The notes under the pieces are model-generated. The model had not been told where the DNA came from and searched no databases. It saw only the letters and a list, made by a program, of their open reading frames with translations. A stretch of 63,857 nucleotides of DNA, filler included, from Dugesia japonica (lineage: Eukaryota), in assembly GCA_001938525.1 (NCBI GenBank). It is 6 parts of 6 records of this genome, joined end to end, with 100 filler letters (N's around TTAATTAATTAA, not from the genome) between each part and the next. Parts side by side here need not be neighbours in the genome. Positions count along the whole stretch, not along the records: positions 55,571 to 63,857 come from MQRL01612304.1; 5 more parts are not named here. One strand, written 5' to 3'. Within the stretch, counting starts at the first letter, position 1. Every line of letters starts with the position of its first letter. Both the position numbers and the translations under genes were made by a program. Shown here one piece after another: positions 715 through 63,857 of this stretch.

Positions 715-3130
715 TTACCCTTTATTATATTGTCTATATGTTTGTCTGTCAAATTCATATTTGCTTAACTTTTTAGCCACTTCTTGTAAGCTTCCATTTC
801 CTACTTCATTCATTTTTTTATGATCTGAACTTTCTTGTTGCAGTAACCCATCTAAAACTATCCTCCTTCCAAGGATAATTTTAAAAGGAGATACACCAGA
901 TAATTTCTGTTGAGTCGCTTTCATAGAAAATTGTATTCTTTGCAGTAATTTGTCCCAGCTTGCTTTCGAGGATCCATATTTTATCGCTGTTACCATCATA
1001 TCTCTCAATATTCTAATGCTTCTTTCTGCTAAGCTATTTGATTGATGTTGATATGGCGATGCAAACTCTTGTTTTTATCTCAAATTTATCTGTTAGTGAT
1101 TGGATTAATTTTCCTTCAAATATCTTTCCTCTATCAGTTAAAAAAGACTTCTGTTTCCCAAAACGTTTTATCCATTGCTCTTTTATCAGACCAACCACTG
1201 ACTTTTCAAACTGTTTATTCAATGCTACAAAATAAACTAACTTACTAAATCTGTGCTTCAGGAAAATAAGCAATATCCATGACAACCTGTTCTAAAGGTC
1301 CAAATTCTGTTCTTGGTATCAAACACTCTTTCGTTCTATCCGTGTATGTCTTTCAAATATTGCATATCATGCATTTTTTAATTTGTGTGTCGACAATCAC
1401 TTTCCTTTTTGGCCAAAAATAATTTACACTTAAATATTTTGTCAGTTTTTGTCCTCCTACGTGGCATGAAATTAATAAAGTTTGGGTATCGATTGCCCTG
1501 CAAGTACTATTTTCTTTTTTTTATTTTCATTGATAATTAACATTTCATCATTCATCTCAAATTTATCCATTTTTGAATAATATTTACTTTTCGTCAACAT
1601 AACACTCAGTTTACTATCACCCTTTCCTTTTTCTATATATTCTTTTAACAAGATCATTTCTTTGTATTTCTTTGATACGACAATTATCAAAATTTGTTTT
1701 TTCTAATACATTGATTCTTTTAACCCGAGCTTGTTCTTCTTTGGCATCTTGAAGCGATGTCTGACATTGTGAACACCAGCTTTCACCTATTCTTGAAAGT
1801 CCATTGTCATTACCACGTGCTCCTCCTTTACTAAATTCTAGATCGAAATTAAATTCTGTTAAATTTGTTATCCATATTTGGAACGGTGAAGTAATAGGTT
1901 TACTCATCTTCGTCATAAAATTCAGAGGTTTGTAATTTATTCTTGTTCTTAATTCTTTTCCGTATAAATAATACAATGCTAACTACTCATTGCGAGTTAC
2001 ACAATATTTTTTTTCATGATCATTTAATGTGCGAGAACCATAAGCTATTACTCGTTCAAATCCATCGTTTGTAACTTGGCTTAAAACTCCTACAATTGCC
2101 CCGAAACTAGCATCCGTATCTAAAGTCATTTAACTTTTATCCTTTGGAAAAGCCAAGATAGTAGCACTACATAACTTGATCTTTAACATTTGAAAACTAT
2201 CCTATTATTCCTTTGTTCATTCGATAATTTTTCATGGCCCCAGTGGCTGCATATGAGAACTTAGTCTTTTATAAACCGCATGTAATAATTGTTTAGACCT
2301 AGAAATGCCCGTATTTGTGTGGTGCATTTTTGTGTCTTTGCTTCCCGAATTTTCCTGATAGTATCGTCATTTGTCTCTACATTTTTAGCATTAATTGTAT
2401 GACTCAAGAAACGCAATTTCTCAGAATTGAATTCGCATTTATCCAGATTTATCTTTAAACCTGCTTGTTTGAGTAAAGAAAAAACTTTACCAGCCCATTC
2501 ATCATGCTCTTGTTGAGTTCGTCCATATATCAAAATATCATCAAAGTATATTAGTACTCCTTTGTACAACATTCCGTTGAATAATTGATGGATCAAACTT
2601 TGGAAAGTTAATGTTGCAGTGCACAATCCAAATTGCATGCGATTAAAACAAAACTGCCTCATCTTTGTACAAAAAGCTGTTTTCAACTTCAATTCTTCAC
2701 TTAACTCAACTTGGTAGTATGCTTGTCCCAAATCTAGCAATGAAAAAAATTGATCCTTTAAGCGTGTCTAAAAGTAGTTAAATATCAGGCACAGGAAAAA
2801 AGTATTTCTCTGTAATTGAATGAAATTTTCGGAAATTCAGACACATTCTTATTGTTCCAACTTTCTGCGGTACAATGACTAATGGTGAATTTCAATGACT
2901 TCTGCAACTCTGGATAATATTTGCTTTTTTAAGAATTTCTAATAACTCATCAATTTTGCTTTCCAAATGCATTGGTTGTCTTTTAGAATTTAACATTATT
3001 GGTCCTCCTTTTGTTTCCATGTGATGCTGTATTGTTGTTATAAATCTAAGATCATATTTCTATGTCATAAATGTTCTAAATGTTCTTCTATCAGTCTTCT
3101 AATTTATTGATTAACATTCTTTTGAATATT
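715..3130 (-). mobile_element. Degenerate Ty3/Gypsy pol (RT - RNase H - integrase), frameshifted pseudogene
   Basis: ORF 2261..2740 has RT motifs LDLGQAYYQV, MQFGLCTA and YFDDIL. 1617-2200 is RNase H-like (INYKPLNF, GNDNGLSR). 715-1470 is integrase-like (FLTDRGKIF, SPFKIILGR). The RT-RH-INT order is Gypsy-type. Confidence 0.92.
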
Positions 3131-9372: not shown

Positions 9373-9472
9373 NNNNNNNNNNNNNNNNNNNNNNNNNNNN
9401 NNNNNNNNNNNNNNNNTTAATTAATTAANNNNNNNNNNNNNNNNNNNNNNNNNNNNNNNNNNNNNNNNNNNN
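9373..9472. other. Artificial scaffold spacer N44-TTAATTAATTAA-N44
   Basis: Identical 100-nt construct at five positions. TTAATTAATTAA gives stops in all six frames. Confidence 0.95.
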
Positions 9473-10640
9473 AAAGGACATCAAGAAAACGACTGTCGTT
9501 ACATAAAGAAAAAATGCGGAAACTGTGGAAGAAAGGGACATCTAATCGAAGAATGTAAGAACCCAACGTTACAATGTTATTATTGCCGAAAAACTGGTCA
9601 TCAAGTACTAAACTGTCCTAAAAAGAATGTCGAAACAGTAGAAAAAATTTGAAAGAAGGAGAAGAAGTGCGTTGGGTAAACGGAAAGCTAAAAATATGTA
9701 CAAAAGAAACCACGAATAGGCGAGAGGAAAGATTGTACATGTTGAGCACAAATTCTGAAGATCAACCAAAAGGGGTTAGTAAACAAACAATTTTTATGAT
9801 AGAAGGAGAAAATAATCAATCATCGCGCAAAACTAACGGGATCATTATAAACCGGGAAGAAAAGGAAGCAAAAAAGGATATAATNNNNNNNNNNNNNNNN
9901 NNNNNNNNNNNNNNNNNNNNNNNNNNNNNNNNNNNNNNNNNNNNNNNNNNNNNNNNNNNNNNNNNNNNNNNNNNNNNNNNNNNNNNNNNNNNNNNNNNNN
10001 NNNNNNNNNNNNNNNNNNNNNNNNNNNNNNNNNNNNNNNNNNNACGAGCAAAGGATAATAGATTATTTCGGATTGGGTTTACGAGACCTATTAATAAAAA
10101 GTTATGTGGTTTCAAGTAAACCTCTGGACTTGGCAACGGCTATATTAGAGGCAGAAGCAATGAGTGAAGTATTGGCAGAACAACGACTAATTATCGGAAA
10201 AGAAACCGTTGGTNNNNNNNNNGAACAAACTATAAACAAAATAGATGCCAGAATTGTCGAAGAACTCACCACAGTACCAAGCAATATACAATCATCTATT
10301 CATTTTGCAGCATTTGCGGTCGGGAAAATCACACCATAGGTAAATGCTGGCAAAGATATTTTAGTAAATGCGGAAAGAAGGGGCACCCAGATGAGAGATG
10401 CCTACTTAAGAGAATCAAAACAGAAGAGGATCAAAGTTCAAGAGATGATAACGAAGTTAGCGAAACTCATAACCAACAAGTTATAAACCAAAGCCCGGAA
10501 TCAATAAGATTACACATCCTAAAAATCAAAGTGCCCGAAAACCTAGAAATCCAAGAGGTATTACCAAAGGCTCAACGAGTACAAAAGTGTTACAGTTGCA
10601 ACAAACGAGGACACCAAGCTAAAGATTGTCAAACAAAAAA
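9473..10640 (+). mobile_element. LTR-retrotransposon gag remnants with multiple CCHC zinc knuckles
   Basis: 9473-9620 reads KGHQENDC..CGNCGRKGHLIEEC..CYYCRKTGHQVLNC. 10044-10640 has capsid C-terminal-like GLR..I..YV..SKPLDLATAILEA plus knuckles CSICGRENHTIGKC and CYSCNKRGHQAKDC. Confidence 0.85.
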
Positions 10641-12808
10641 TAAGCACTTTACAAAATTTAATATCTTCGGTATTATTTTTATCTTATGGTCTGCAACTCT
10701 AGAAGTCTTAGACCTTTTTATAAGATTTTAAAATGTGTAATAAAAATGAAATTAAGCTCTCAATTTATACTAAAGAGGTACGCATGCAATTTACTGAAAA
10801 TCATAAATATTTACTAAATTAATATATTAATTCATTAAGAATTATAAATGTTTATGAAAAATTATTCGTTCAATTTCTATTTTTACAAAAATTTTCAATT
10901 TATTTGCACAATTATTTACAAAATTTTCGATGAAGTTATTAATACCACATCCGCATTTTAATGAAATTACATTAGCATAGAATTAAAATTTGTACATCCA
11001 CATTAAACCAGATCTGTTTAATGGAATTACATAAACGAAATTAACATAAAATTAAAATTTGTACATAAAAATAAAAATAAATAAATCATGTAAAAATAAT
11101 TAAAAGTCAAATTGAACATAAAATAATAGAGTCAGATTGATTTCAAAAGTCAAATTGCTTTGAATTGTTGCATCCATTAGTTTTTGATTTATATAGTTGG
11201 AATTGTTGGATTGCCATCAATTTGTAAGTGTGTATGAGCTTAAATTTGTATGTATGTTTTATGTAATTATGGGCTTGGGCTTTCTTCAACATATAACACT
11301 TATATCTTTTCTATATAACCTTAAATATTATTATTATAGATAATAGATATTATTATATTTAAACTATATAGTCGACATTATATATATGAAAAAGAATTTT
11401 ACTTTTTATAAATTATAATTGTAATACAGTATTTCTTTACAAATGCGTTAAGATTTTTACCACTGAGTGTTGATCCAAGTAGATCTTGAATCTTTTAGTG
11501 ATTTGAAAAAAGGGTAGTAAACTAACATTTGTGTACGTATTTATACCAACAGGCCACTCGGTCATTACATGCAAATTAAAAATAAAATAAAATATTTGTA
11601 AAAATTTTACATTTAGATTAAAAATAAAGGCGGATATTTACAAAAGATTTATAAATTACATAATAATTTATTAGAATATTACCTTTTATTAATAAAATCC
11701 GACAAAAATTTTATAATCGATAATTATAAACAAAATTCATTATTTCATTATTCGATCAATAATTATTAATAAAGTCCGATAAAGGTGATTTGTAAACAGG
11801 ATTTACAATGTATAATTAAAATTAAAACTGTTTTTACATTAAAAATAAAATAATAATTACATTACTAAATGTAAAATAATAAAATTGTCACAAGGATTGC
11901 AATCGAAACTGTTAAAAATAAAAATAAAATTGATTAGTCAGCAATGTACAATTGTCACAATTAAGATATAATTAAAGTTAATCATGAATGCCGAAACTGA
12001 TCGTAGAAATTGAATTTGAATTGAGGGACCCGAATTGAGGTTTGGCTGGCTGAGGAGTACATTTGAATGTTTGTATTGTGGTTTGTTGTGCATGTTTGTG
12101 TATTGTGTATTTGTATGTTTCCCAACAGCTTCAATGGTTTGATCATTTGAATTGAGTGTATTGAATACAATCTATTAAAATCAAGTTGTTTTTTGGAGGA
12201 ATTTAGAAATTTAGAAATCACACGACGTAACTGAATTTTAAGCTATCACATAACAAAATAATAATAATTACTTAGTTTACTATGAATCGTACAAAGCGCT
12301 TGGCTTTTCATTTTTTGTCTNNNNNNNNNNNNNNNNNNNNNNNNNNNNNNNNNNNNNNNNNNNNNNNNNNNNNNNNNNNNNNNNNNNNNNNNCTTATTTT
12401 GACTACCGCGTCTCAGGGTACTCACTTACATCATTCAAATTGAACACTTGATATATGATGTTTACTATATTTATTTCGTTTTTCACTTATTTTTACCTTT
12501 GAGTAAAATGTTACATACTAGAAATTCAATCGATAATTTACTTGAAGCTTTAAAAAACAAGAGAACATTTTGAATCCAAGTTCTCTAGAATTTTCGGAAT
12601 TATTAAATTATAGGTTCAGTGGATGAATTCACGATATCATTCATAAAATGGTATGGAAGTTTCAAGATTCCCAAAATTTTATCTACATTGAGGAATTAGA
12701 TAACATTGAACTACGAGTATTATTTAAACATCTGTAAAGCAAACATGACTCAGAATCTGGATAGTTTGTTTAATCTCGATCCATTCATTAATGCGATGAT
12801 ATAAATAT

Positions 12809-33174: not shown

Positions 33175-35419
33175 CAGTGATGGCGAACGTGCGACCCACG
33201 GGTCATGCAGTGACCCGCGTAAAAAATTATCTAACCCGTTGCATGAACATTTGTAATATGATTGATTTTATTTCAAGATTTCAGCACTAGTTGTTTTCGA
33301 ATTTTCAAGGGTTTTGGTGTGATGAAAGTGTTGGGCTAGAACGCCTAAAAAAGAGGTAATAAAGAGTTAAAAAGTGTCCAAACAAATGAATAAAACGAGC
33401 AGAAATAAAGAAATTTACTAATACTGGACCAGAAAGTTGATTATTATAAGTATTATTATCATTATTATTATGTAATTATTATTACTATAATTATTATGGA
33501 TTTATTATAAAAAATATCGTAAAATGAAAATTAGACGTACGGGACCCTAATATGGATAATAAAAAGAAATTTTTCGAGAAATAAGACAAGAAGGTTTAGA
33601 TATAATGATAAAAATAATCTACACTAGTATAATATTATATTAAATGGTGTCTCTACGACCCTAATTATTTATGATATTAACGGTAATTACCGTTTAGTAT
33701 TGTTATTATCTATAGTGCAAAATAGTGCAATAGTATAGGAAAATTAAAGACCAGTAAAGAATATCGGTGTTGTAATCTCTGATAGATCTGCTTGCGTGCA
33801 ATATTTATCGTCGTTTGGCTCAAAAATTGTTTGCCGGATGGTCATATCAGCAGCAGCAGCAGGTGAATAATTTCAAACTTTTCGATTAAATTTTTTTTAT
33901 AAATAAATAGTAATTATAAAATATAGGCAATTTAAAAAATATACCATAAATTTTTTAAAATTTATAAACTGTCATAAAAGCTGTATTTCTTTAAAAAATG
34001 ATCATAAATTTTTATTTATTTTAAAAAATGCCATAAAATTGTGAAGTAATTAAAAATAAAAAATTCATATTCGTTAAAATGTTTTGGACAAATCAAAATT
34101 TAGTTTAAAAAATCATATAAAGTATCAATGTCATCGTTATTTACTGCTGTAAAAAAATTTATGGCATTTTGTAAATAAATCAAAATTTATGTATGTTAAA
34201 ATAATGCAAAAATTTATGGCATTTTTTTAAATATTCCTAAATATATTTATTATTAAATATATCATCATGTCAATTTCTAAGAAATCAAGATTATATTAAT
34301 ACAATGAAGAGTGGCTTTTTAAGTCATTGAAACAGAGAGTCATTGAAACAGAAAATAAGACCGTCTGTCTTATATGCGGTGAAAGTATAACTGTTCGTAG
34401 TTATAACGTAAAACTACATTTTGAAACAATGCATAAAATCTTATTTCATTGACAGAAGCAGAGAAGAAAAAATATTTTTCACGACAAAAAAACAATATTA
34501 GTCTCAAACAAGTGCGTTTAATTATTTTTTAGAGCCAAGAAAAAAGATCACGTGTGCTAGCTTTCAACTGTCACATTGTATTGCACGACTTGGAAAACCT
34601 CTTTCTGAAAGAGAGTTTTTTAAAACAGCATTATTAGAATGTAGTGGATCCTTATTTGCTGATTTTAAAGAAAAAGATCTCATTATTAAAATGATAAAAG
34701 AATTACAATCTAGTCAAAACACTGTTATAGATCGTATACTGGCATTGGACAAAGATACTTCAACTCAATTAATTTGTGATTTAAACTTTGCCGAAATGTA
34801 TTCGGTTTCCTTGAACGAGAGTACAGATATAACAGGTAAAGCACAACTTGCAGTTTTTATTAGATTTAAATCTGGAAATATTATGAAAGAAGAATTAATA
34901 AAATTGATGAATTTGATAGGAAGAACTATCGGTACTGAAATTATGAAGGAATTTACGTTAAACATGACTGAGATGAATATTGATTTAAAGAATATTATTT
35001 CTGTAACAACTGATGGTGCCACAAGCATGATTGGTAAAAACATGGGATTTATTAAATTACTAAAGGAAATTATTGGACATCCTTTAATTGAATTTCATTG
35101 CCTCATTCATCAGGAAGTACCATGTGCAAAGGCGGCCTTAAAATCTTTTTTAAATGTTATGCTAATTGTAACAAGTGTTGTTAATTTTATATCCGTACAA
35201 GCTTTAAATAAGCGAGAATTTTCCCGGTTGTTAGAAGAAGTAGATTCTCAAAATTCAGGACTTCTAATGTACAATAACGTTCGATGGCTTAGTCGTGGAC
35301 AAGTTTAAATCGTTTTGTTAGTTTGATTGATGAAATGAAACTCTTTTTAAATATAAAAGAAAAAAAATATTCAGAATTGATAAATGATAAATGGTTGCAT
35401 AACTTAATGTTATCTTGTG
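33175..35419 (+). mobile_element. hAT transposon (Buster/Charlie group, GTF2IRD2-like transposase from ~34267), truncated by an insertion at 35420
   Basis: 5' TIR CAGTGATGGCGAAC with flank CACTAGTA. BED-like VCLICGE...HFETMH, SLNESTDI, VTTDGA, HCLIHQE, VRWLSRG. Confidence 0.92.
33925..34238. mobile_element. AT-rich foldback MITE nested in the hAT 5' region
   Basis: AGGCAATTTAAAAAATATACCATAAATTTT vs AAAATTTATGGCATTTTTTTAAATATTCCT, with further internal inverted copies. Confidence 0.6.
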
Positions 35420-46908: not shown

Positions 46909-47475
46909 GGTACAAATATTTCTTGAAAATTATTTATTATTTGTTTCCCGACCATTATAATAGCCAATTGTTGAGCAAGTTCAAATAAACAACTTCCATT
47001 ACTACACTCTTCATTTCGTAATCCGAAAAACAATGAATAATTACCCGGATATCCATTAAATCTGAAGTATTTCAACAAATAGATTAAATTTTTTAAAAAA
47101 GAAAGTCAAAATAGTCACCTTCCTTTGAAAAATGCAATGTAGAATATTGAAGAATAAAAGTTTACAAATTGAAATAAATACACTTTTAGAATTAAATGGT
47201 CTTCAAATTGAGTTTGAGTTCGATGCATTTCTAAAAGTGTAATTAATAATAAAAAAATAATTTTGAAAAATAAAATCACCCCATTGTGTAAGTTTGTAGG
47301 CAAGTTTCTCATAAACTCGTCCAAGGCACATTATCAAAATTAAATTGACGAAAGCAGCACTTGTATTGGCAAAAATTAATGCTTTTGAACGTAAAAGTGG
47401 ATTATCAAATAGAGGGATAGCAATTAGGACACGATAAATAATAACTGCTATGATGAAAATGATGATCAGCACAAA
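46909..47475 (-). CDS. Anoctamin/TMEM16 family gene (ANO7-like), three internal exons: 47475-47280, 47230-47119, 47061-46909
   Basis: GT-AG introns of 49 and 57 nt give a continuous frame: [15 protein letters not shown]...[57 protein letters not shown]...[37 protein letters not shown]. Confidence 0.93.
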
Positions 47476-48062
47476 CTGAATAATTTAAATTTTTAATAAC
47501 TATATTAAATAAAATTATTTTTGTTTAAATCATTGATTAAATTTAAATTGAATTTTAAATTAAAAAATTAATGATTTTCATATTAACAAATAGAAATTTA
47601 TTAAAATAGTATTATTTAAAATAAATTATCAAATAATATCACCAAGCAAAATTTATGGCAGTATTTCATTAAAATCTCAAATGAAAGGAAAACAATAATG
47701 GTATTTCAATAGCAAAAGAATAAATCTTGAGTTACAAGCAATCAACTTCGAGGACAATTATCATTTGATAGTTCTCATTCAAAAAATTTAATTTTACAGT
47801 AAATTTGAATCGAGTCTGGTTTTCTGTTTTTATTTCTAAAGAAGTGCTTTAAGTTGATATCTTTTGTCTAGAGAGAAATTAACCAATTCAACGCAATTAT
47901 GTTGTATAAGTACAGTAGGTAAGAATCATAATGAATCTGTTTATCATTAACGGTTTTAGTGTTATCACTTCTGAAATGTTATGTCCAAGTAATACTTAGA
48001 TTTTTAAATAAATTTAAATTGTAAATTTTTCAGTCACATTATATTAATTAATTTAAAAGCTT

Positions 48063-51879: not shown

Positions 51880-52795
51880 CATGGTGTTTCATAAGTCACT
51901 TAAAAACCAAAAAAATTTATTATGAATAAAATATAGGCAGGTTATAGTACAATTAATGTAAGTATTATAATCAAGTCAGGAATATTTTTAATGTTCATAA
52001 TAAATGTTCAATATGTCCAACATTTTCTGCCACTTCAGCCTTCTATCGAACAACCAAGTTTTCAATGGCTACTGCAGTAGTCTCGCGAGAAATGATTGCC
52101 GCTGCTAGTTTTATACGGTAAATCAATTCTTCTTTAGTTTTAGTCTGATTTTCATGATAAATTATTGATTGCATATGACCTTATAGCCAGTAATCGCATG
52201 GATTTATGTCTCGGGAAAGAGGAAGCCAGAATTGGGGAATGTGTCTGCTGATAATACGGTTTTTTCCAAATTGTTGTAACAGAAGCTGTTTAACATCACC
52301 CATGATATATGCAGGCGTCCCATCCTGCATGAAAATAGCAGAACAAAATTTCCTATTTTTTCTCAAATCCGGTAGAACATGCTCTTTAATCATTGAAAGA
52401 TAGCTCTTGTCATTGACAGTTTCACGGTAGATAAAGGGGTAAGAGTAAAATGTTTGGAGACGTCCATCCATACCGTCACTTTTTGTGAATGCAAAGGAAT
52501 TGTGTGGTATGCTCTTGGGTTTTGAGCAGACCAGATGGCATAATTCTTTGTGTTTATGGCGCAATTCACAAAAAAATGGCATTTATAGCTCCGCAAGATG
52601 TTATTCAACATTTCTTGAGTGTTGAGAAGCCACTTTGCAAAATACTTTGGGAGGAGAACATCAGTTGATTTCAGTTCTTGTAGCATCGTGAATTTGTAAG
52701 GAAATAGCCTAAGTTTGTTGCGAAGAATGCGGTATACGCTGCTGTGAGGGATGTTTGTTTCATCTGAGATTCCTCTAGAAGAAATAATACTCAAA
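51880..52795 (-). mobile_element. maT/DD37D-like Tc1/mariner transposase remnant with one TIR
   Basis: LRLFPYKF, PLHSQKVTVW, FMQDGTPAY, WLPLSRDINPCDYWL. TA-CATGGTGTTTCATAAG end at 51880. Confidence 0.88.
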
Positions 52796-52854
52796 AAAAT
52801 CCAATACCTTCAAAAAAAAAAACAAAAATCTTGAATCAATATTTTAAAAATTAA

Positions 52855-55470: not shown

Positions 55471-55570
55471 NNNNNNNNNNNNNNNNNNNNNNNNNNNNNN
55501 NNNNNNNNNNNNNNTTAATTAATTAANNNNNNNNNNNNNNNNNNNNNNNNNNNNNNNNNNNNNNNNNNNN
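55471..55570. other. Artificial scaffold spacer
   Basis: N44-TTAATTAATTAA-N44. Confidence 0.95.
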
Positions 55571-55689: not shown

Positions 55690-57479
55690 TCTATTATATT
55701 TAAACAATGATTTATTTATCCTTGGTGTAAATAATAACTCTATGATATTTAAACAATGATTTTAATTATGATGTATTTTGATTTTCTGATTAATTTTATT
55801 TGGAACATTTATTTTTATTTTTGAACATTTATTTTATCTCAAAAGTTTTATGTTGTAAATAATAATTTTATTTATCTGTACAACTAATTTTTTTTAACAG
55901 AAATATCTATTAGTTTGATCATTGATGTGTGTATAGCCTACATATGTAAAATTATTATAAATGCTGATCAGTTTTGGCTAATTTTTAGAGACTTTTGATT
56001 CAGCTAGAATCCGATCTCTCTGNTAAGGCATCTCTAGCTTGTTTCTAAAATTTTGCTTATAGGTGTAACACTATAGTTATATTATTATATATCAAAAATA
56101 AATTTATTCAAAGTATTCTTATTGGTTATTTATTTATTAAAGTATTGTTTATATAATACTGTACGAACATACAAATGGAAAAATCAACACCCGTAAAATT
56201 TGCAAACATATTATCAACCAATAGTTATAAAATAATTGAACCATAAAAAACTTGATGAGTAGAAATACCCAACAAATTTGATGGCGCGAACCGGGAATCA
56301 AAATAATAAAAATTATTAAAAGCAGTTTTAAATCAAGCAGGTGTTCAGACCTTTATTAAAATATACCGTGTATTGATCAGTTTGATATCAGATATTGGAG
56401 AAAATCCTACTACGATCTCTTATCAAAGTTGATTAATTTGATCATCTTAAGTTTGGTATTAGATTTAGATTGAATTCCTGCCGCAATCCTTTAGCAACGT
56501 TCTGATAATATAAAATTAGTTCCCTTAAAGTAATAAAGTTAAAAGTGATTCAAAATTTACCGGTTGAAACGAAACTCACGAAATTGTTTGATTAGTATTC
56601 CGGTTAAAACGATACCGAAGAATTTGTTGATTAGTATTCCGGTTGAAACGATACCGAAGAAAATAACTGTTAGTATTCCAAATGAAAAAAACTGAAGAAA
56701 AAATCATTGGAAAAAATATAGTATATAAATTGCGAAACAAAGATATTAAAAAAATGGCTGCAGCAAAAATTAAAAATGAAAACATACCATTTAAAAATCT
56801 AACAATGAAAGATCAGGTAGGAGGTGGATTTGGATACCGTGGTAACTTGAATATAATACCCATAGAGTTCTATGCAGGGAAACCTGAGGAGTTCGACGAG
56901 TACTTTGAGCCTATGCAGGTTTGTGCCACAGCTTGTGGATAGACAGAAGCAGAATTAATTAAAAGATTGCCACTTTATCTAAAAGAATATGCATTAAAAT
57001 GTTATAAAAATTTGGATGCCAAAACTGATAAATGGAATTACTTAATAGCAAAATTGAGAAAAAAGATAATAGTTCCAAGTGAATTAGAAAGAATTTATAT
57101 ACAAAAGTTTAGAGATAGAACACAATTAGGAAATGAAACAAAGGGCGAATATATATACAAATTAACGAGATTAGTAGAACAAGCTTTTAGAAAAGGAGAT
57201 AATACGGGTCATATTATAGAGTTTCAATTCCTAAATGGGACACATAAACATATTCGCGATGCTCTAATTGCAGCAGAGTATAAAAATTTAGAAGAATTAA
57301 CAACAAAAGCCAGAAAAATTGAAACAAACACAAAACATAAAGAGAAAACCAGACAAATATATGCAATTGAAGTAAGTAATGAGGGATCGTCATGGAACGA
57401 TATGCGATAGGCATATCAAAATCGTCAAGATAGTAGAAAAGAGCAAGATGTGAAATTTAAAACAGATTACTACCAAAGA

Positions 57480-57700
57480 AATGATAACAACTACAACAGA
57501 AACTCAAGTCCTGGAAGACATAACAATAATTATGACAGACATTCAAGCCCTGGAAGGAGCTATAGCAATAATAATCGAAATTCGAGTCCTAGAAGGAATT
57601 ATAACAACTATAATAGAAATTTCAGCCAAGATAGAAATTATGATAAAAAACGCAAGTCCAGCGAATGGATATAATCGGCATAATCGAGGATATAGTCCAA
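57480..57700 (+). repeat. 33-bp coding tandem repeat in gag (NYNRNSSPGR-like, ~5 copies)
   Basis: NYNRNSSPGRH / NYDRHSSPGRS / NNNRNSSPRRN / NYNRNFSQDR. Confidence 0.85.
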
Positions 57701-58276
57701 AGAGAAATGATAATAGAAGGAATCCAAACGCGTATTTTTCAAATGAAGGTAGAGATAAATTGAATAACAGAGGGCAAATAAAGTGTTTTTATTGTAATAA
57801 ATATGGACATGTGGCAAGAGTATGTAGAAATAAACCAAATCATTCTAGAAGTATTCTAAAGAAAGATGTATCATTCAGCCCAGAAACAAGAGAAACTAAT
57901 GCTATTGAAGTAATCGATAATGAAGCTTATAGAAATATGAGACTCGAGTTGGAAGATATGAAAATACATTATCAGCGTATGATGGAGAGACAACAAGAGA
58001 AAGAAGAATATGAAATAAATATGCGTGAACCAACAGAAGTAGATTAAGATGCAGTTGATGAAAAGAAGCAGGAAATATTGATAGAGAATGTTCGATTAGA
58101 AATAACGATTGGAAAGATGTTAATGAATATCCTATCAACTTCCAAAACATTAAACCAGTAATAATCATTTAGCAAAAAATCGAAACAAAATAGCGATATC
58201 AAAAAATTTAGAAACAATAGACGAGATATTTCAAAAATATAGTGAATATATAAAAGGAAACGAAACGTTGCAAGAG

Positions 58277-58525
58277 TCATTAAAGATCAAGGTGGTAGCA
58301 GGAAAAAACGAATGCTCAGTGACAGCATTAGAATTAACAGTACATTCTTGTACGAAAACGAACAAATTATATAAAATAATAAAGAGAGATTAACCAGTAT
58401 TGTTAAAAACTGAAGATGAGATAAAACTATCATTCTATGAACAGAACTAAAGGAAAATAGAACATTGATGGAATATGGAATTATTCCAGGAAATAATAAT
58501 ATCATAAAAGCAACAATCATTAAAC
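58277..58525 (+). pseudogene. Ubiquitin-like domain between Gag and protease
   Basis: SLKIKVVAGKNECSVTALELTVHSCTKTNKLYKIIKRD*PVLLKTEDEIKLSFY[fs]TELKENRTLMEYGIIPGNNNIIKATIIK aligns by eye to ubiquitin (ITLEV..., [20 protein letters not shown]). Confidence 0.7.
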
Positions 58526-61500
58526 ATAAGCCGCAAATATTACCAGACGATCAACAACAATCTATGGAAGAAATTTTGAGTATGATGGCACAAGCAGATA
58601 AAGCTGAAGAGGAAAGAGCAAGCCAACAACAGCCACCAACATCGACCACAAGAAATGAAAACCATCAACATCAGATGATGTAGGAAGCGAAATGCCAAGA
58701 CAGAAAATATTTAAAGACAAAGTATCAGATTATAAAAGATTAGAATTAGAAAGAATTGATAATATGGAAAAGCGTGGTATTTATAAAATTAATGATATTG
58801 AGAAGGCGCGAAAACATATGCTTTTCCCAATACAAAGAGAGAAAAAATATCAATAATGGTTGATAAAGTAGAAAAGGGAGTAATGAAGACGATGTGAATT
58901 TTGAATCACTATTGCACGCAGATCATTTTAAAAGGGCAATGCGCAATTTTGTAGATAGATATTTAGGAGGAATGCAATGATTTGGTAATATATTCTCATG
59001 TATTTTATTCTGGTGTATGTCCTAACATTTTTAAAATTAGCGGGTCATCAACTACTTTCTCTCAGACAATTGCATGCAGTTTTCGGTTACACATTGAAAT
59101 TAGGAGCATGTTTTTGCCCATTTATTGCAAAACACATGATTGTGCTAAATCATAGTGAAAAAATAAAAAATCTAGAAAAATATCGAGGCGTATATACAAT
59201 AAACATGGATGATGAGCAAGAGTTAAAAACGTTAACTAATGATAGATCATCAGATACAGAATATAAACCATATAAACAAAAAAATAGCGAATTAGAACAG
59301 ATAAAAAGAGATGATTCAACACAATATAAATATCAAAAGATATACTCAATGTCAGTCATAGATTCAGATAACAATAGACCCACAACTGATATTATAATAA
59401 ATGGAATAAGGATACCTTTTTTAATAGATACACGAGCAGTATCCTTAATAATAAAGTAGTCATGGTTAAATAAACCCCAAAGACAGAAAATAAAAATCTA
59501 TAAACCAGAAGGTATAAAATCATTCACCGGTCATATAATAAAAACAAAAGGCATAATTGAATGTAAGGTCTTAATTGGACAAGAAATTGTTACACATTCA
59601 TTTAGAGTGATGGAAAATGGAACACAAAATTGTATTTTAGGTATGGATTTTCTGGAGAGGTTAAAAGGATATGTCATTCATTTGCAAGGCAGCACGCTTA
59701 AGATGGTAACATGATAACCAGTACTAGATAGAGGTAATTCAGTATGTGCAACAGAGTTAAAAACAGTAGAACGCTGTAGTGAATGTAAAATACCTATACA
59801 TACAGAAGTACAAAATATCAAATCATATATTTTTGAACCAAATGAGAAATTGATAGAGAAAAATAATTTATCAATGATGCCCGAATGTGTAGAATCAAGA
59901 AAAGGGATAATACCAATGAGAATAGCTAACTACAATAATTACAATGTGATACTTCAAAAAAAAATTAGGAAATTTTTTGAAAATGGAAACGAATATGAAA
60001 TATATGAAATTGTAATTGAAGAGCAACAAAAGAAAGTGAACTTACAGAAACAGAATAAACAAACCCCGAATATAAAATAAACAAAAAAAGTTGGTCAACT
60101 AAATAATCATGAACTATTTGAGCTTATAATGGAAAAACAAGAGAAAATTGACAAAATAATTGACAAAGAACTAATAAAGNNNNNNNNNNNNNNNNNNNNN
60201 NNNNNNNNNNNNNNNNNNNNNNNNNNNNNNNNNNNNNNNNNNNNNNNNNNNNNNNNNNNNNNNNNTTGGACAAATATGAGGATGCATTCGCTAAACATGA
60301 GTTTGATATGGGAGGAACAAACATTATAAAACATATAATAGATACAGGTAATGCAAGACCAATAAAACAACGACCATATGTAGCACCGTATGCGTTAAGA
60401 CCAGCAATCAAAAGAAAAGTAGCGGAACAAAAAGCAAATGGAATCATTTTCTCAATGGGCATCGCCAATAGTACCAGTTAAAAAGAAAGACGGTGAGATT
60501 AGAATGTGCATTGATTACAGAAAACTTAATGAAGTTACACAAAAAGATACACACCCATTTCCTAAGATACATGAACAATTCAATAAGTTAATGAATGCAG
60601 AATACTTTTAGATGCTAATAAAGGTTATAATGTAATCCCAGTACAAGAAGAGGATCGAGAAAAAACAGCATTCTGTACTGATGATGGATTATATGAATTT
60701 GTCAGATTGCCGTTTGGGCTATGCAATGCACCAGCTACATTTTAGAGACTAATGAACACAGTATTAACTGGTGTGGAACATGTAGTTGTGTATATGGATG
60801 ATATACTCATAGCGTCTGAAACATTTGAACAGCATTTAATTAATATAGAAAATGTACTATCTAGAATTAGAAAAGTTAATATTAAATAAAAACCCACAAA
60901 GTGTAAATGAGCAGAGGAAAGTGTTTTATTTCTCGGACATATTGTATCATCAAAGGGATTGGAGCCAAATCCAGAAAAGGTAAAAGCGGTCCAAGATTTT
61001 CCAGTGCCAAAAAGCGTACAACAATTACAAGGATCTATTGGTTTAGTGGGATATTATCGGAGATTCATACAAGATTTTGCAAAAATATCAGCACCATTGG
61101 TAGAATTAACCAGAGGTATGAAAACAAAAGGTGAAAGCAAAATTGTCATGATTGTAGAACAATTAGATGAAAAATCAAACAAAGTCTCAGAAGAAATGGG
61201 GCCCAAAACAACGAGAAGCTTTCGATACATTAAAACAACGATTGCTAACCGCTCAAATATTAAGATATCCTGACGTTACAAAGCAATTCATAGTAATGAC
61301 ATATGCAAGTGGATATGCCATGGGAGCAGTGCTTGGTCAGGAAGACGAAAAAAATAAAGATTATGTAATTGCATATGCCAGAAGAATGTTAAAAGAAGCA
61401 GAGACAAGGTATTCAAAAATTGAAAAAGAATGTTTAGCTATCATATTTGCGTTAAAACAATTTAGACCATTTATATATGGAACAGAAATAATTATCCGAA

Positions 61501-62966
61501 CAGATCATAAACCCTTAGAGGGTTTGTGGAAAAATAAAGATGCATCCAATAGAATACTGAAGTGGGCAATGAAAATTCAAGATATGAGCATAAACATTAT
61601 ATACAAGCCAAGTAAAGCAAATAAAAATGCTGATGCATTATCAAGAATTCCAGAAATAAATATATAAGAAATGATGTCAATTGTTATAACAGGAACAAAC
61701 ACAAAAACGTTTCTGGAGGAACAAAATAAAGATAAACAAATACAAGAGATTAAAAAGATGATGCTTCAAGAAAAGAATACTAAATATAAAATGTATAAGA
61801 ATTTTCTTATGTACAATAATTTAGAGAAAAATCTGATGGTTGTACCAGATTCTCTAAAGCAACTATTATTATTAGAATATCATGATGGAGCGCTAAGAGG
61901 ACACCTATCTAGTAGAAAAACCACGTCAAGATTACTACAAAAATACTATTGGGATAATATCAAAGAGGATGTAAAGAAGTGGTGTTTAAGCATGTAGTAT
62001 CTGTGCCACAAGAAAGAACACAGGAACAGAAACCAAAGTTCCATTACAACCAATTCCAATACCCAGCTCATCAATGGAAACATGTGTAATGGATTTTTTG
62101 TGCAAATTACCAACAACTATAAAAGGCAATAAACATATATTAGTATTCAATGACTATTTCACAAAGTGAGCAGAGGCATTTCCTACCAAAAATGAAACAG
62201 CAGATACATTAGCAAAGTTATTAGTTGAAAAGATAATATACAAATATGGAGCGCCAAGAAAGTTGCTACCAGATAGGGCAAAGAGTGTTCTCAATGAAGT
62301 CATAAAACGAGTAACAAATATGTTTGATATTAAAAAAATAAATACGACGGCTTATCACACACAAACGGACGGATTAGTTGAAAGATTTAACAGTATATTA
62401 TGTAATAGATTAGCGGTTTTCGTAAATAAACATCAAAATGATTGGGACCTATTTATTAAACCAACATTGTTCATACATAATACAACTGAGAACGAAGCCC
62501 CGGGATATTCACCATTTTATCTTATGTACCTCAGACAAAATCATATGCCAATAAATATAGCATTTATATAGCATAGCCAAACGTGTCACAATATATGGAT
62601 AATCCAAATTATGTCACAAAAATGCAAGAAAAACTACAAGAAGTGTATAAACAAGCCAATCTAGAAGTAAAATTCAAATAGGAACAATACAAAGACTATT
62701 ATGACAAAAAAGCTAAAGAATATAATTTACAGTTGGAGATAAAGTAAGAATAAAGACACTAATCACACAAAAGTGGTTAACAAATAAATTAGCAAGACCT
62801 TACGAAGGTCCATATGAAGTAGTAAAAACAACTCCTACAAATTTACATATAATAAAAAACAAAAAAGATGACCCCATGATTGTGGCAATTAACCGATGCA
62901 AAATAGCGGAAGCAGAAATTGAACCTAAAAAACAACACAAATGTAACCTTTGATCAGGATCACAAA

Positions 62967-63814
62967 ATGCATAACCACTCTTTGTACTAACTTTAGTGAC
63001 ATTATTAACAGTAGATGTAGCTAAAATGGAGAAAGGAGAAAATTTTGGTATTATATAAAGGATAATATATATTCTAATAGCATCGTACTGAAGGCACCAA
63101 ATAATATAGCAATTGCTGCAACGATAAAAGATCACGTAATCGATATAGCAAATGAATACACTACGAAAAAGAGATATGTTTTCGCAGCAGTATCAATGAA
63201 ATTCAGCAAAGGGATAGGCCAGATAGAGATAAAAGGACTAAAAGCTGATACAAAATATAGAATTTGGATACAGTATAGAATGAGCGGAGTCAAATTATTG
63301 AAACAGTATGTATTCCCTACACTACCAGAAAAATTGATTACAACAAATAAGGACTACTTCAAGTAAACAAGAAAAGCCGAATACAACCAAATCACAGATA
63401 AAGACAAGATTTGTGACTATTCCTACAAGACAAGAGAAGTTAAAAATAACTAAACCACAAATAAAAACAAGTATTCGTCACAATACACTAATATGTAGTA
63501 ATGTTACAGTGAAAACGACAACGAGTGTAATAACAAACAAAAATCCAAAGAGAAATAGACAGACTTTGATTAATAGCATAAATTTAGATCATCAACAATT
63601 GTGACATAAAATCTTACAATTATGGATTACCACCACAACAGTAAAACCATTTGACATAAAAATATTACATCATCCTTTCTCAATAATGGGAATGATTGCA
63701 TTACTCTTCCTCTTCGCTTTTATAATTACATTAATCCAAATACATAAGCGATATAGGTTGAAGAGGCAGCGTTATCGCCGTCGCAATACCCCGCATATTC
63801 CAAATTATGTCTAA
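62967..63814 (+). pseudogene. ORF3 in env position: type I membrane protein with signal peptide, FN3-like domain, Thr-rich stalk, TM helix and basic tail
   Basis: Reconstructed over three frameshifts and one stop: PLFVLTLVTLLTVDVA; NIYSNSIVLK...IEIKGLKADTKYRIWIQY...FPTLP; RTTSSKQEKPNTTKSQIKT / VTIPTRQEKLKITKPQIKT; FSIMGMIALLFLFAFIITLIQI; HKRYRLKRQRYRRR. Confidence 0.7.
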
Positions 63815-63857
63815 TGGACATTGGTCTGAACACCTTGCGGTAAATTTCAAAGAGATA

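Follow-up and report, generated by a model that had tools for sequence, protein, structure and literature searches.

A decayed planarian Ty3/gypsy element carries the remains of a predicted surface-protein gene behind its integrase

Introduction

Env genes of the gB type are found across animal Ty3/gypsy elements, according to a 2026 survey that leaves the mechanism of entry open (PMC13524379). Nematodes, bryozoans and flatworms have errantiviruses of the gB/chuvirus type, for which the published layout is GAG-ENV-POL. The accessible text of the survey cites the pairing of gD with gB in herpesviruses, where gB needs gD, gH and gL, and states that the entry of the gB-type errantiviruses is unknown (PMC13524379). 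Additional genes may also follow pol: as far as the available text of these papers goes, Tor elements have env-like genes with internal promoters in this place (PMC4402516), and bdelloid elements have extra ORFs there, small transmembrane (TM) ones included (PMC5408684).

The Env proteins of insect errantiviruses are of the F type: they have about 500-600 residues, are Cys-rich, and contain a furin site in the ectodomain as well as a fusion peptide. Attachment glycoproteins that act beside a separate fusogen, for instance RSV G with F, are built from a small head and/or a mucin-like stalk, with one TM region.

Here we study a gene, ORF3, that lies directly behind the integrase of a decayed element in a 63,857-nucleotide stretch of DNA from Dugesia japonica, below called the window. 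An original prediction, made by reading this DNA, had described ORF3 as a membrane protein with a fibronectin type III (FN3)-like domain in the env position of the element.

Results

The element and its surroundings

The window belongs to an AT-rich, repeat-rich animal assembly, and the decayed Ty3/gypsy element occupies it from about 56280 to its end. The features are collected in Table 1. The order typical of Ty3/gypsy elements (Metaviridae), gag and then protease, reverse transcriptase, RNase H and integrase, is seen both in the order of the Pfam matches and in colinear tblastn matches to gypsy polyproteins. From gag to integrase the element spans about 6.3 kb, and the pol frame ends in HKCNL followed by a TGA at 62951-62953. 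The window stops before the end of the element; neither an LTR pair nor a PPT was found in it, and the 5' LTR is not delimited. The end of the primer-binding-site-like motif is presumably similar to a tRNA T-arm.

When searched with tblastn against the Gag regions of gypsy polyproteins, gag gives a best E of 2e-7. Ahead of its CCHC knuckle, at 57411-57760 on the plus strand, there are Asn/Arg/Ser-rich repeats with SSPGR-like units. For pol there are 135 matches, the best at 65%, and the nearest relative is one protein (P0001) with 64-65% identity in RNase H. The same protein is the sole supported neighbour in a quick RNase H tree of 59 rows, a row set that holds no described gB-type errantivirus. 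No locus related to the integrase, RNase H or env pieces was found in viral, metagenome or genome contigs. Further, no tRNA, Rfam family or unusual RNA fold (z -0.8) was found.

Table 1. Features of the element and of the gene behind its integrase, in window positions.
Feature	Position	Strand	Evidence
Primer-binding-site-like motif, TGG start	56282..56299	+	read from sequence
gag, decayed, one CCHC knuckle (57784-57825)	56667..58047	+	zf-CCHC E 9.3e-4
C-terminal remnant of a chuvirus/gB-type (class III) Env, likely	58737..59165	+	PF24664
Aspartic protease, decayed	59421..59714	+	gag-asp_proteas E 0.0037
Reverse transcriptase (YMDD) and gypsy-type RNase H, decayed	60266..61667	+	RVT_1 E 4.4e-7; RT_RNaseH (PF17917) E 1.1e-34
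Integrase, decayed: H2C2, core, GPY/F motif at 62807	61668..62953	+	Integrase_H2C2 (PF17921) E 1.7e-14; tblastn
ORF3 start ATG 62967 (pol-frame TAA five bases on) and signal-peptide-like leader (62978-63013)	62967..63024	+	
Predicted beta-rich ectodomain, FN3-like E-F motif at 63223-63270	63025..63366	+	
Thr/Lys-rich stalk, in-frame TGA 63602-63604	63338..63676	+	
Predicted transmembrane helix, 22 residues, hydropathy 2.72	63677..63742	+	
Arg/Lys-rich cytoplasmic tail and stop	63746..63814	+	
Possible start of a further ORF: ATG 63807, five bases before the ORF3 stop, other frame, 17 codons to window end	63807..63857	+	

The rest of the window contains host genes and other repeats. A Ski/Sno-family (SKOR-like) host gene is found at 24694-25881 on the plus strand (395 codons without a stop; PF02437 E 1.7e-35, PF08782 E 3.4e-22), and an anoctamin exon at 47203-47484 on the minus strand (PF04547 E 3.1e-6). 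Translation reveals five more decayed transposon pieces, at 715-2767 (-), 9622-10731 (+), 21350-21823 (-), 34502-35308 (+) and 52181-52809 (-), which we take to be a second gypsy pol, gag-like knuckles, and pogo/Tigger-like, hAT-like and mariner-like pieces. There are also pairs of N runs, 44 bases each and 12 bases apart: one is at 55471-55570, where the spacer between the runs, at 55515, is TTAATTAATTAA, and similar gaps are at 9373, 24272, 37168 and 45869. Because these pairs are assembly linkers, the element and what precedes it are not necessarily contiguous.

A probable env remnant upstream of the protease

The segment between gag and protease likely holds the C-terminal remnant of an env of the chuvirus/gB type. 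Its best match to PF24664, the Monjiviricetes fusion glycoprotein, has 23.8 bits, which is under the cut-off of 27, and covers positions 466-542 of the 653 in the profile. The E-value is 7.5e-4 (4.3e-4 when trimmed) and improves to 1.3e-5 when the piece is read through with X; on read-through the score rises colinearly, from 18.8 to 23.8 bits. The Pfam scan, made on 39 pieces of the window, also gave a probably false family at E 7.3e-4 on another piece. We consider the env remnant likely real because of its position and this colinear gain. Two hydrophobic stretches (1.26 and 1.94) follow the match, the last of them in frame with the protease (58989-59459); by themselves these two stretches have no match.

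Most of the Env ectodomain is absent from the present copy. Some 460 positions of the profile before the match have no counterpart, and no full Cys-bridged ectodomain (domains I-V) is found in the approximately 300 codons that separate the knuckle from the PF24664 match, as these contain 1-6 Cys per frame.

A broken stretch in this interval, at 58290-58525 on the plus strand, looks by eye like a ubiquitin-like domain, judged against the pattern that we assume for such domains; it has no match in Pfam or PDB. By eye 58270-58350 is also similar to the start of flatworm gB ectodomains. We set this candidate aside, as the segment can be read as ubiquitin-like too and neither reading has a tool match.

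Since the likely env remnant sits between gag and protease, the right comparison for the element is with GAG-ENV-POL errantiviruses of the gB/chuvirus type, and not with the F-type ones of insects. Further, with a likely env upstream ORF3 becomes an extra gene and not the occupant of the env slot, so the env position assigned to it in the original prediction is not confirmed.

Anatomy of ORF3

A hydrophobic leader does follow directly on the end of the integrase, as had been described, though it is only moderate (best 19-residue hydropathy 1.46). The ectodomain block, 63025-63363, consists of 113 codons free of stops, with IEIKGLKADTKYRIWI at 63223-63270 and FPTLP at 63313-63327. In the stalk T and S make up 26% of the residues and there are two N-glycosylation sequons. 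The stalk also contains the duplicated unit that had been reported from it: 63364-63408 recurs at 63427-63471, in frame and with a period of 63 nt (21 codons), 33 of the 45 bases being identical. The hydrophobic helix is found where it had been placed, and in the 20 residues after it there are 9 K/R. The stop, TAA at 63812-63814, overlaps an ATG at 63814; this TAATG overlap is real, and its ATG opens 9 codons only.

All pieces of the decayed ORF of about 280 codons that had been proposed are thus found in their places, but in the present copy they do not form one ORF. Three frame breaks (just after the ATG, between leader and domain, and between domain and stalk) and the TGA in the stalk split it, so a whole protein of about 280 codons is something that we infer. 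Read in this way, ORF3 is predicted to be a glycosylated type-I membrane protein, topology and glycosylation both being predictions. There is a single Cys, the furin-like words (RxK/RR) are confined to the tail, and no Pfam Env family is matched; at this length, ORF3 is indeed unlike the F-type Env, in agreement with what had been claimed. The sole Met-Gly sits inside the helix, without Ser/Thr at position 6.

In composition ORF3 resembles the element: its A content is 0.428, compared with 0.409-0.448 in gag and pol and 0.341 in the flank. There is also a shift at 63620, with a C content of 0.22 versus 0.14-0.16. ATG-NN-TAA is present at both ends of ORF3. As the element's 7574 bases contain this 8-mer 6 times, and the TGA at 62951 precedes the first of the two, translational coupling is only suggested.

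The features were compared with composition-matched Markov simulations. A TM helix with a basic tail was obtained in none of 1000 simulations, nor at any site in the first 56 kb of the window in six frames; the thresholds of this test were fixed after a stricter first setting, above the observed value, had missed the helix. A stop-free run of at least 113 codons appeared in 9 of 1000 simulations, and the level of duplication in the stalk was matched by 1 of 200. The FN3-like pattern appeared in 0 of 1000, for a pattern that was written after the motif had been seen. The domain order and topology of ORF3 exceed chance.

Fold and relatives of the ectodomain

The FN3-like domain of the original prediction was based on the motif at 63223-63270. 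The motif is present, but an FN3 fold around it is unsupported. Within it, GLKADTKY has an Ala where the FN3 E-F signature L-x-P-x-T-x-Y has Pro. Trimmed pieces of the ectodomain score 12-12.4 bits against Pfam fn3 (cut-off 25, E 0.19-0.26) over about 20 residues, a level that GH36C reaches as well, and the untrimmed piece has no Pfam family.

In addition to Pfam, a profile was purpose-built from 124 bacterial FN3 domains selected by the motif, of which all five that were checked are Pfam fn3. For the ectodomain, a decayed and AT-biased query, this bacterial profile gives 0.9-1.1 bits, compared with 30-111 for 62 held-out members. The N-terminal part of the ectodomain scores -1.2 bits, where the members have a median of 26 and a minimum of -1.1. 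Among shuffled sequences 53 of 1000 score as well or better when everything is shuffled, and 787 of 1000 when the motif is kept. The likeness to FN3 rests solely on the 16-residue motif; beyond it nothing fits, as judged by the profile over strands A-G with its strand-B Trp and strand-C Tyr. Given the bacterial origin of the profile and the state of the query, the domain may be a strongly diverged FN3.

Two single-sequence structure models disagree: one is mostly beta (pLDDT 44), while the other contains a long helix (pLDDT 48). The mostly-beta model aligns weakly to an Ig-like adhesin and to other sandwiches, with a best Z of 5.2. The FN3/Ig-like fold that had been anticipated did not emerge from Foldseek, where the ectodomain models have no match at E<=0.001, and FN3 is not among the 50 VIA rows listed. 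All Atlas matches are below 0.9; those at 0.86-0.87 and 0.78-0.82 are to C-terminal beta-sandwiches of glycosidases, which belong to another clan, and are leads only. Overall, the ectodomain is probably beta-rich, with FN3 unproven.

The 113-residue domain has no homolog among 1.84 billion representatives. None of 77 candidates was confirmed in a search of longer proteins only, and none of 194 pattern matches from metagenomes; the best match in PDB has E 0.56, and plasmids and phages give E 5-8 only. For the TM/tail piece 0 of 11 candidate homologs held. The homolog searches showed no likeness of ORF3 to host receptors or viral accessory proteins, and PDB, Foldseek and structure searches gave no sequence or fold match to viral attachment glycoproteins.

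Other copies of the element

To study other copies, the public contigs of run X1 (organism A) and run X8 (organism B) were used together with raw RNA reads of the runs X12 and X15, all at 80% likeness. The numbers of aligned records are 18036, 2784, 365 and 21, in this order. Depth is given as a percentage of the average over ten pol bins, and summed contig depth is not copy number. The gypsy family of the element is clearly abundant.

Depth changes sharply along ORF3. In X1 and X8, respectively, it is 23% and 18% of pol at the integrase end and leader, 2.8% and 1.6% in the ectodomain, 1.5% and 0.3% in the stalk, and 89% and 98% in the bin of the TM helix and tail (63622-63857). The spacer between protease and reverse transcriptase, at 5.2% and 5.9%, is above both ectodomain and stalk. 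Position 62985 is covered by 35 contigs of X1 and 10 of X8. Position 63302 is covered by ten X1 contigs, so the ectodomain is not unique to the present copy. Such a profile could come from a constant anchor whose outer part is hypervariable and, equally well, from an outer part that is absent in most copies.

The env remnant has a depth of 75-149% of pol in these contigs, and the bin before it 47-57%. Among the 18 loose ends listed of 1376, none indicates a large insert at 58460-58840 in other copies. Depth and loose ends give hints that the shortened env is common to many copies, where it is possibly a family-wide membrane anchor within the polyprotein.

Two joints in X1, from 56317 to 63700 and from 62150 to 63232 (among 15 listed of 70), imply that in other copies ORF3 shares a molecule with the 5' end and with the integrase. 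Across the first joint 26 letters of one contig were compared by eye: half of the bases equal the TM start, and the residues are still mostly hydrophobic. From the composition, the pol-like depth and the two joints, the TM/tail of ORF3 is native to the element family, and the earlier claim of a native gene holds to this extent.

The contig that fuses the 5' leader (56317) to the TM region (63700) also shows, at the level of DNA, a derivative of the family that has lost its interior. In RNA run X12 the TM/tail is covered about like pol, 7.5 reads deep; no read lies over 63098-63359 and no RNA joint is among those listed. The RNA reads are few and mostly less than 90% alike. First mates are mostly on the plus strand, in libraries whose direction lacks a host-gene reference in range.

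Discussion

The reading that we prefer takes ORF3 for an accessory gene, now broken, of a Ty3/gypsy family with many copies; it would encode a single-pass surface attachment glycoprotein acting beside a gB-type fusogen. We give this a probability of roughly 35%; the attachment role is proposed by analogy with herpes gD and gB. The leader would send the protein into the secretory pathway, a small beta-rich domain would be displayed atop a glycosylated stalk, and the helix and basic tail would fix the protein N-out, all as predicted from the sequence. On particles or producer cells the protein could then bind target cells. Fusion could be done by the class III Env, either of an ancestor with a whole env or of intact relatives in trans, and the ATG-NN-TAA at both gene ends may allow several 3' accessory ORFs in a row to be translated in a coupled manner.

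The low depth of ectodomain and stalk, 0.3-3% of pol, fits the fast-changing exposed part that such a protein would have. Against this, the same low depth equally fits a family in which most copies lack the ectodomain of ORF3, and the Env ectodomain is absent from the present copy; should this hold for the whole family, a fusogen in cis would be missing altogether. Also against it count the env match under the Pfam cut-off, the disagreement of the two low-confidence structure models, the lack of X12 reads over the ORF3 ectodomain, and the further occurrences of ATG-NN-TAA in the element. The wider proposal is a retrotransposon counterpart of herpes gB plus gD, that is entry by two proteins, a class III fusogen between gag and pol and a fast-evolving receptor-binding glycoprotein of a new family behind the integrase, coupled to it by stop-start signals. 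This we regard as unlikely in its entirety.

A family that had instead shed its fusogen would make ORF3 a membrane factor of a new sort, independent of env. The Env ectodomain would have been lost and its anchor kept in Gag-Pol, with ORF3 serving envelope-independent cell-to-cell transfer by adhesion or protrusion, in the manner of the sORF2/FAST-like proteins of MDG1-group elements (PMC11952523). The missing Env ectodomain, next to a remnant and preceding stretch at considerable depth, agrees with this. So does the single TM followed by a polybasic tail, which sORF2 proteins share, some of them downstream of pol (PMC11952523, accessible text). However, these proteins have 63-107 residues, are typically N-myristoylated and come from env-less elements, as far as they are described there; ORF3 is about three times longer and has a leader and a predicted folded, globular domain. 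A family-wide loss of the Env ectodomain also depends on short contigs and on the few loose ends listed. We find this alternative rather doubtful, though it is the likeliest of the rivals.

A variable outer part on a constant anchor would fit an arms race with the host as well. ORF3 could then be a host-directed membrane factor outside entry, which blocks receptors (superinfection exclusion) or serves as a decoy or against restriction, and the available text on the planarian Burro elements does describe accessory domains that meddle with the host (PMC6431247). Against it, no host receptor or viral accessory protein came up in the homolog searches, and we think it quite unlikely.

The pieces may also not be one gene. 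A TM/tail common to the family, as a small ORF or a cis-acting 3' sequence, would then follow a segment inserted or captured in a minority subfamily, in agreement with the contrast in depth between the two, the composition shift and the three frame breaks. However, the succession of leader, domain, stalk, TM and tail is that of a type-I protein, the stalk unit is duplicated in frame, and the leader bin has an intermediate depth; neither an RNA structure nor an Rfam match explains why the TM/tail is constant. This makes two segments distinctly improbable. Very improbable is a functionless passenger captured from a host FN3-type receptor: the E-F motif, the terminal F-x-T-L-P and the Pfam fn3 score point to it, but only the motif fits FN3, the searches yielded no homolog, the composition is that of the element and the TM/tail is kept across the family.

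On the attachment reading, which we prefer, a protein like that of ORF3 is a concrete candidate for the partner that gB lacks in such elements, and others could be sought behind pol in GAG-ENV-POL elements. As a counterweight, extra ORFs behind the integrase are common and the present copy is dead. ORF3 is a predicted orphan surface protein, represented by one dead copy, that makes the stated question of entry testable. In the openly accessible literature searched, judged by titles, the beginnings of abstracts or accessible passages, no paper describes a gypsy element of the gB type with a second surface glycoprotein.

How does ORF3 compare with known systems? With paired viral attachment glycoproteins, herpes gD with gB and RSV G with F, the analogy is functional only. 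The ORF3s of the bdelloid elements Vesta4 and Vesta6c are also membrane ORFs after pol, of 210-230 residues and, for Vesta4, without homology to known env; in the accessible description they have two TM regions, cysteines, RXXR and a coiled coil, and they replace env (PMC5408684). In contrast, ORF3 here has one TM, one Cys and a stalk rich in Thr, and the element still has a likely env remnant besides.

The giant planarian gypsy elements Burro/GYPSM1 have an env in frame between gag and protease, as the present element likely does in remnant form, and they share with it accessory ORFs and a high copy number, in their case thousands (PMC6431247, available text). Burro has a Ubi/SUMO-like domain before env, for which the present element has a resemblance by eye only, without a tool match. 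Compared by description, the Burro polyprotein has about 4,900 residues with BIR, BCL2, MATH and ankyrin domains, whereas the element here has its 6.3 kb and one knuckle.

The GAG-ENV-POL errantiviruses with HSV/gB-type ENV from Nematoda, Bryozoa and Platyhelminthes, described by Chary and Hayashi (PMC13524379), are similar in their gypsy pol, in the chuvirus/gB-type env sequence between gag and pol, a likely one in the present element, and in being multicopy. The word fibronectin has 0 matches in the accessible text of that survey. Compared with these errantiviruses the present copy is without the Env ectodomain, and it carries behind its integrase an additional predicted surface-protein ORF of a kind that this text does not describe.
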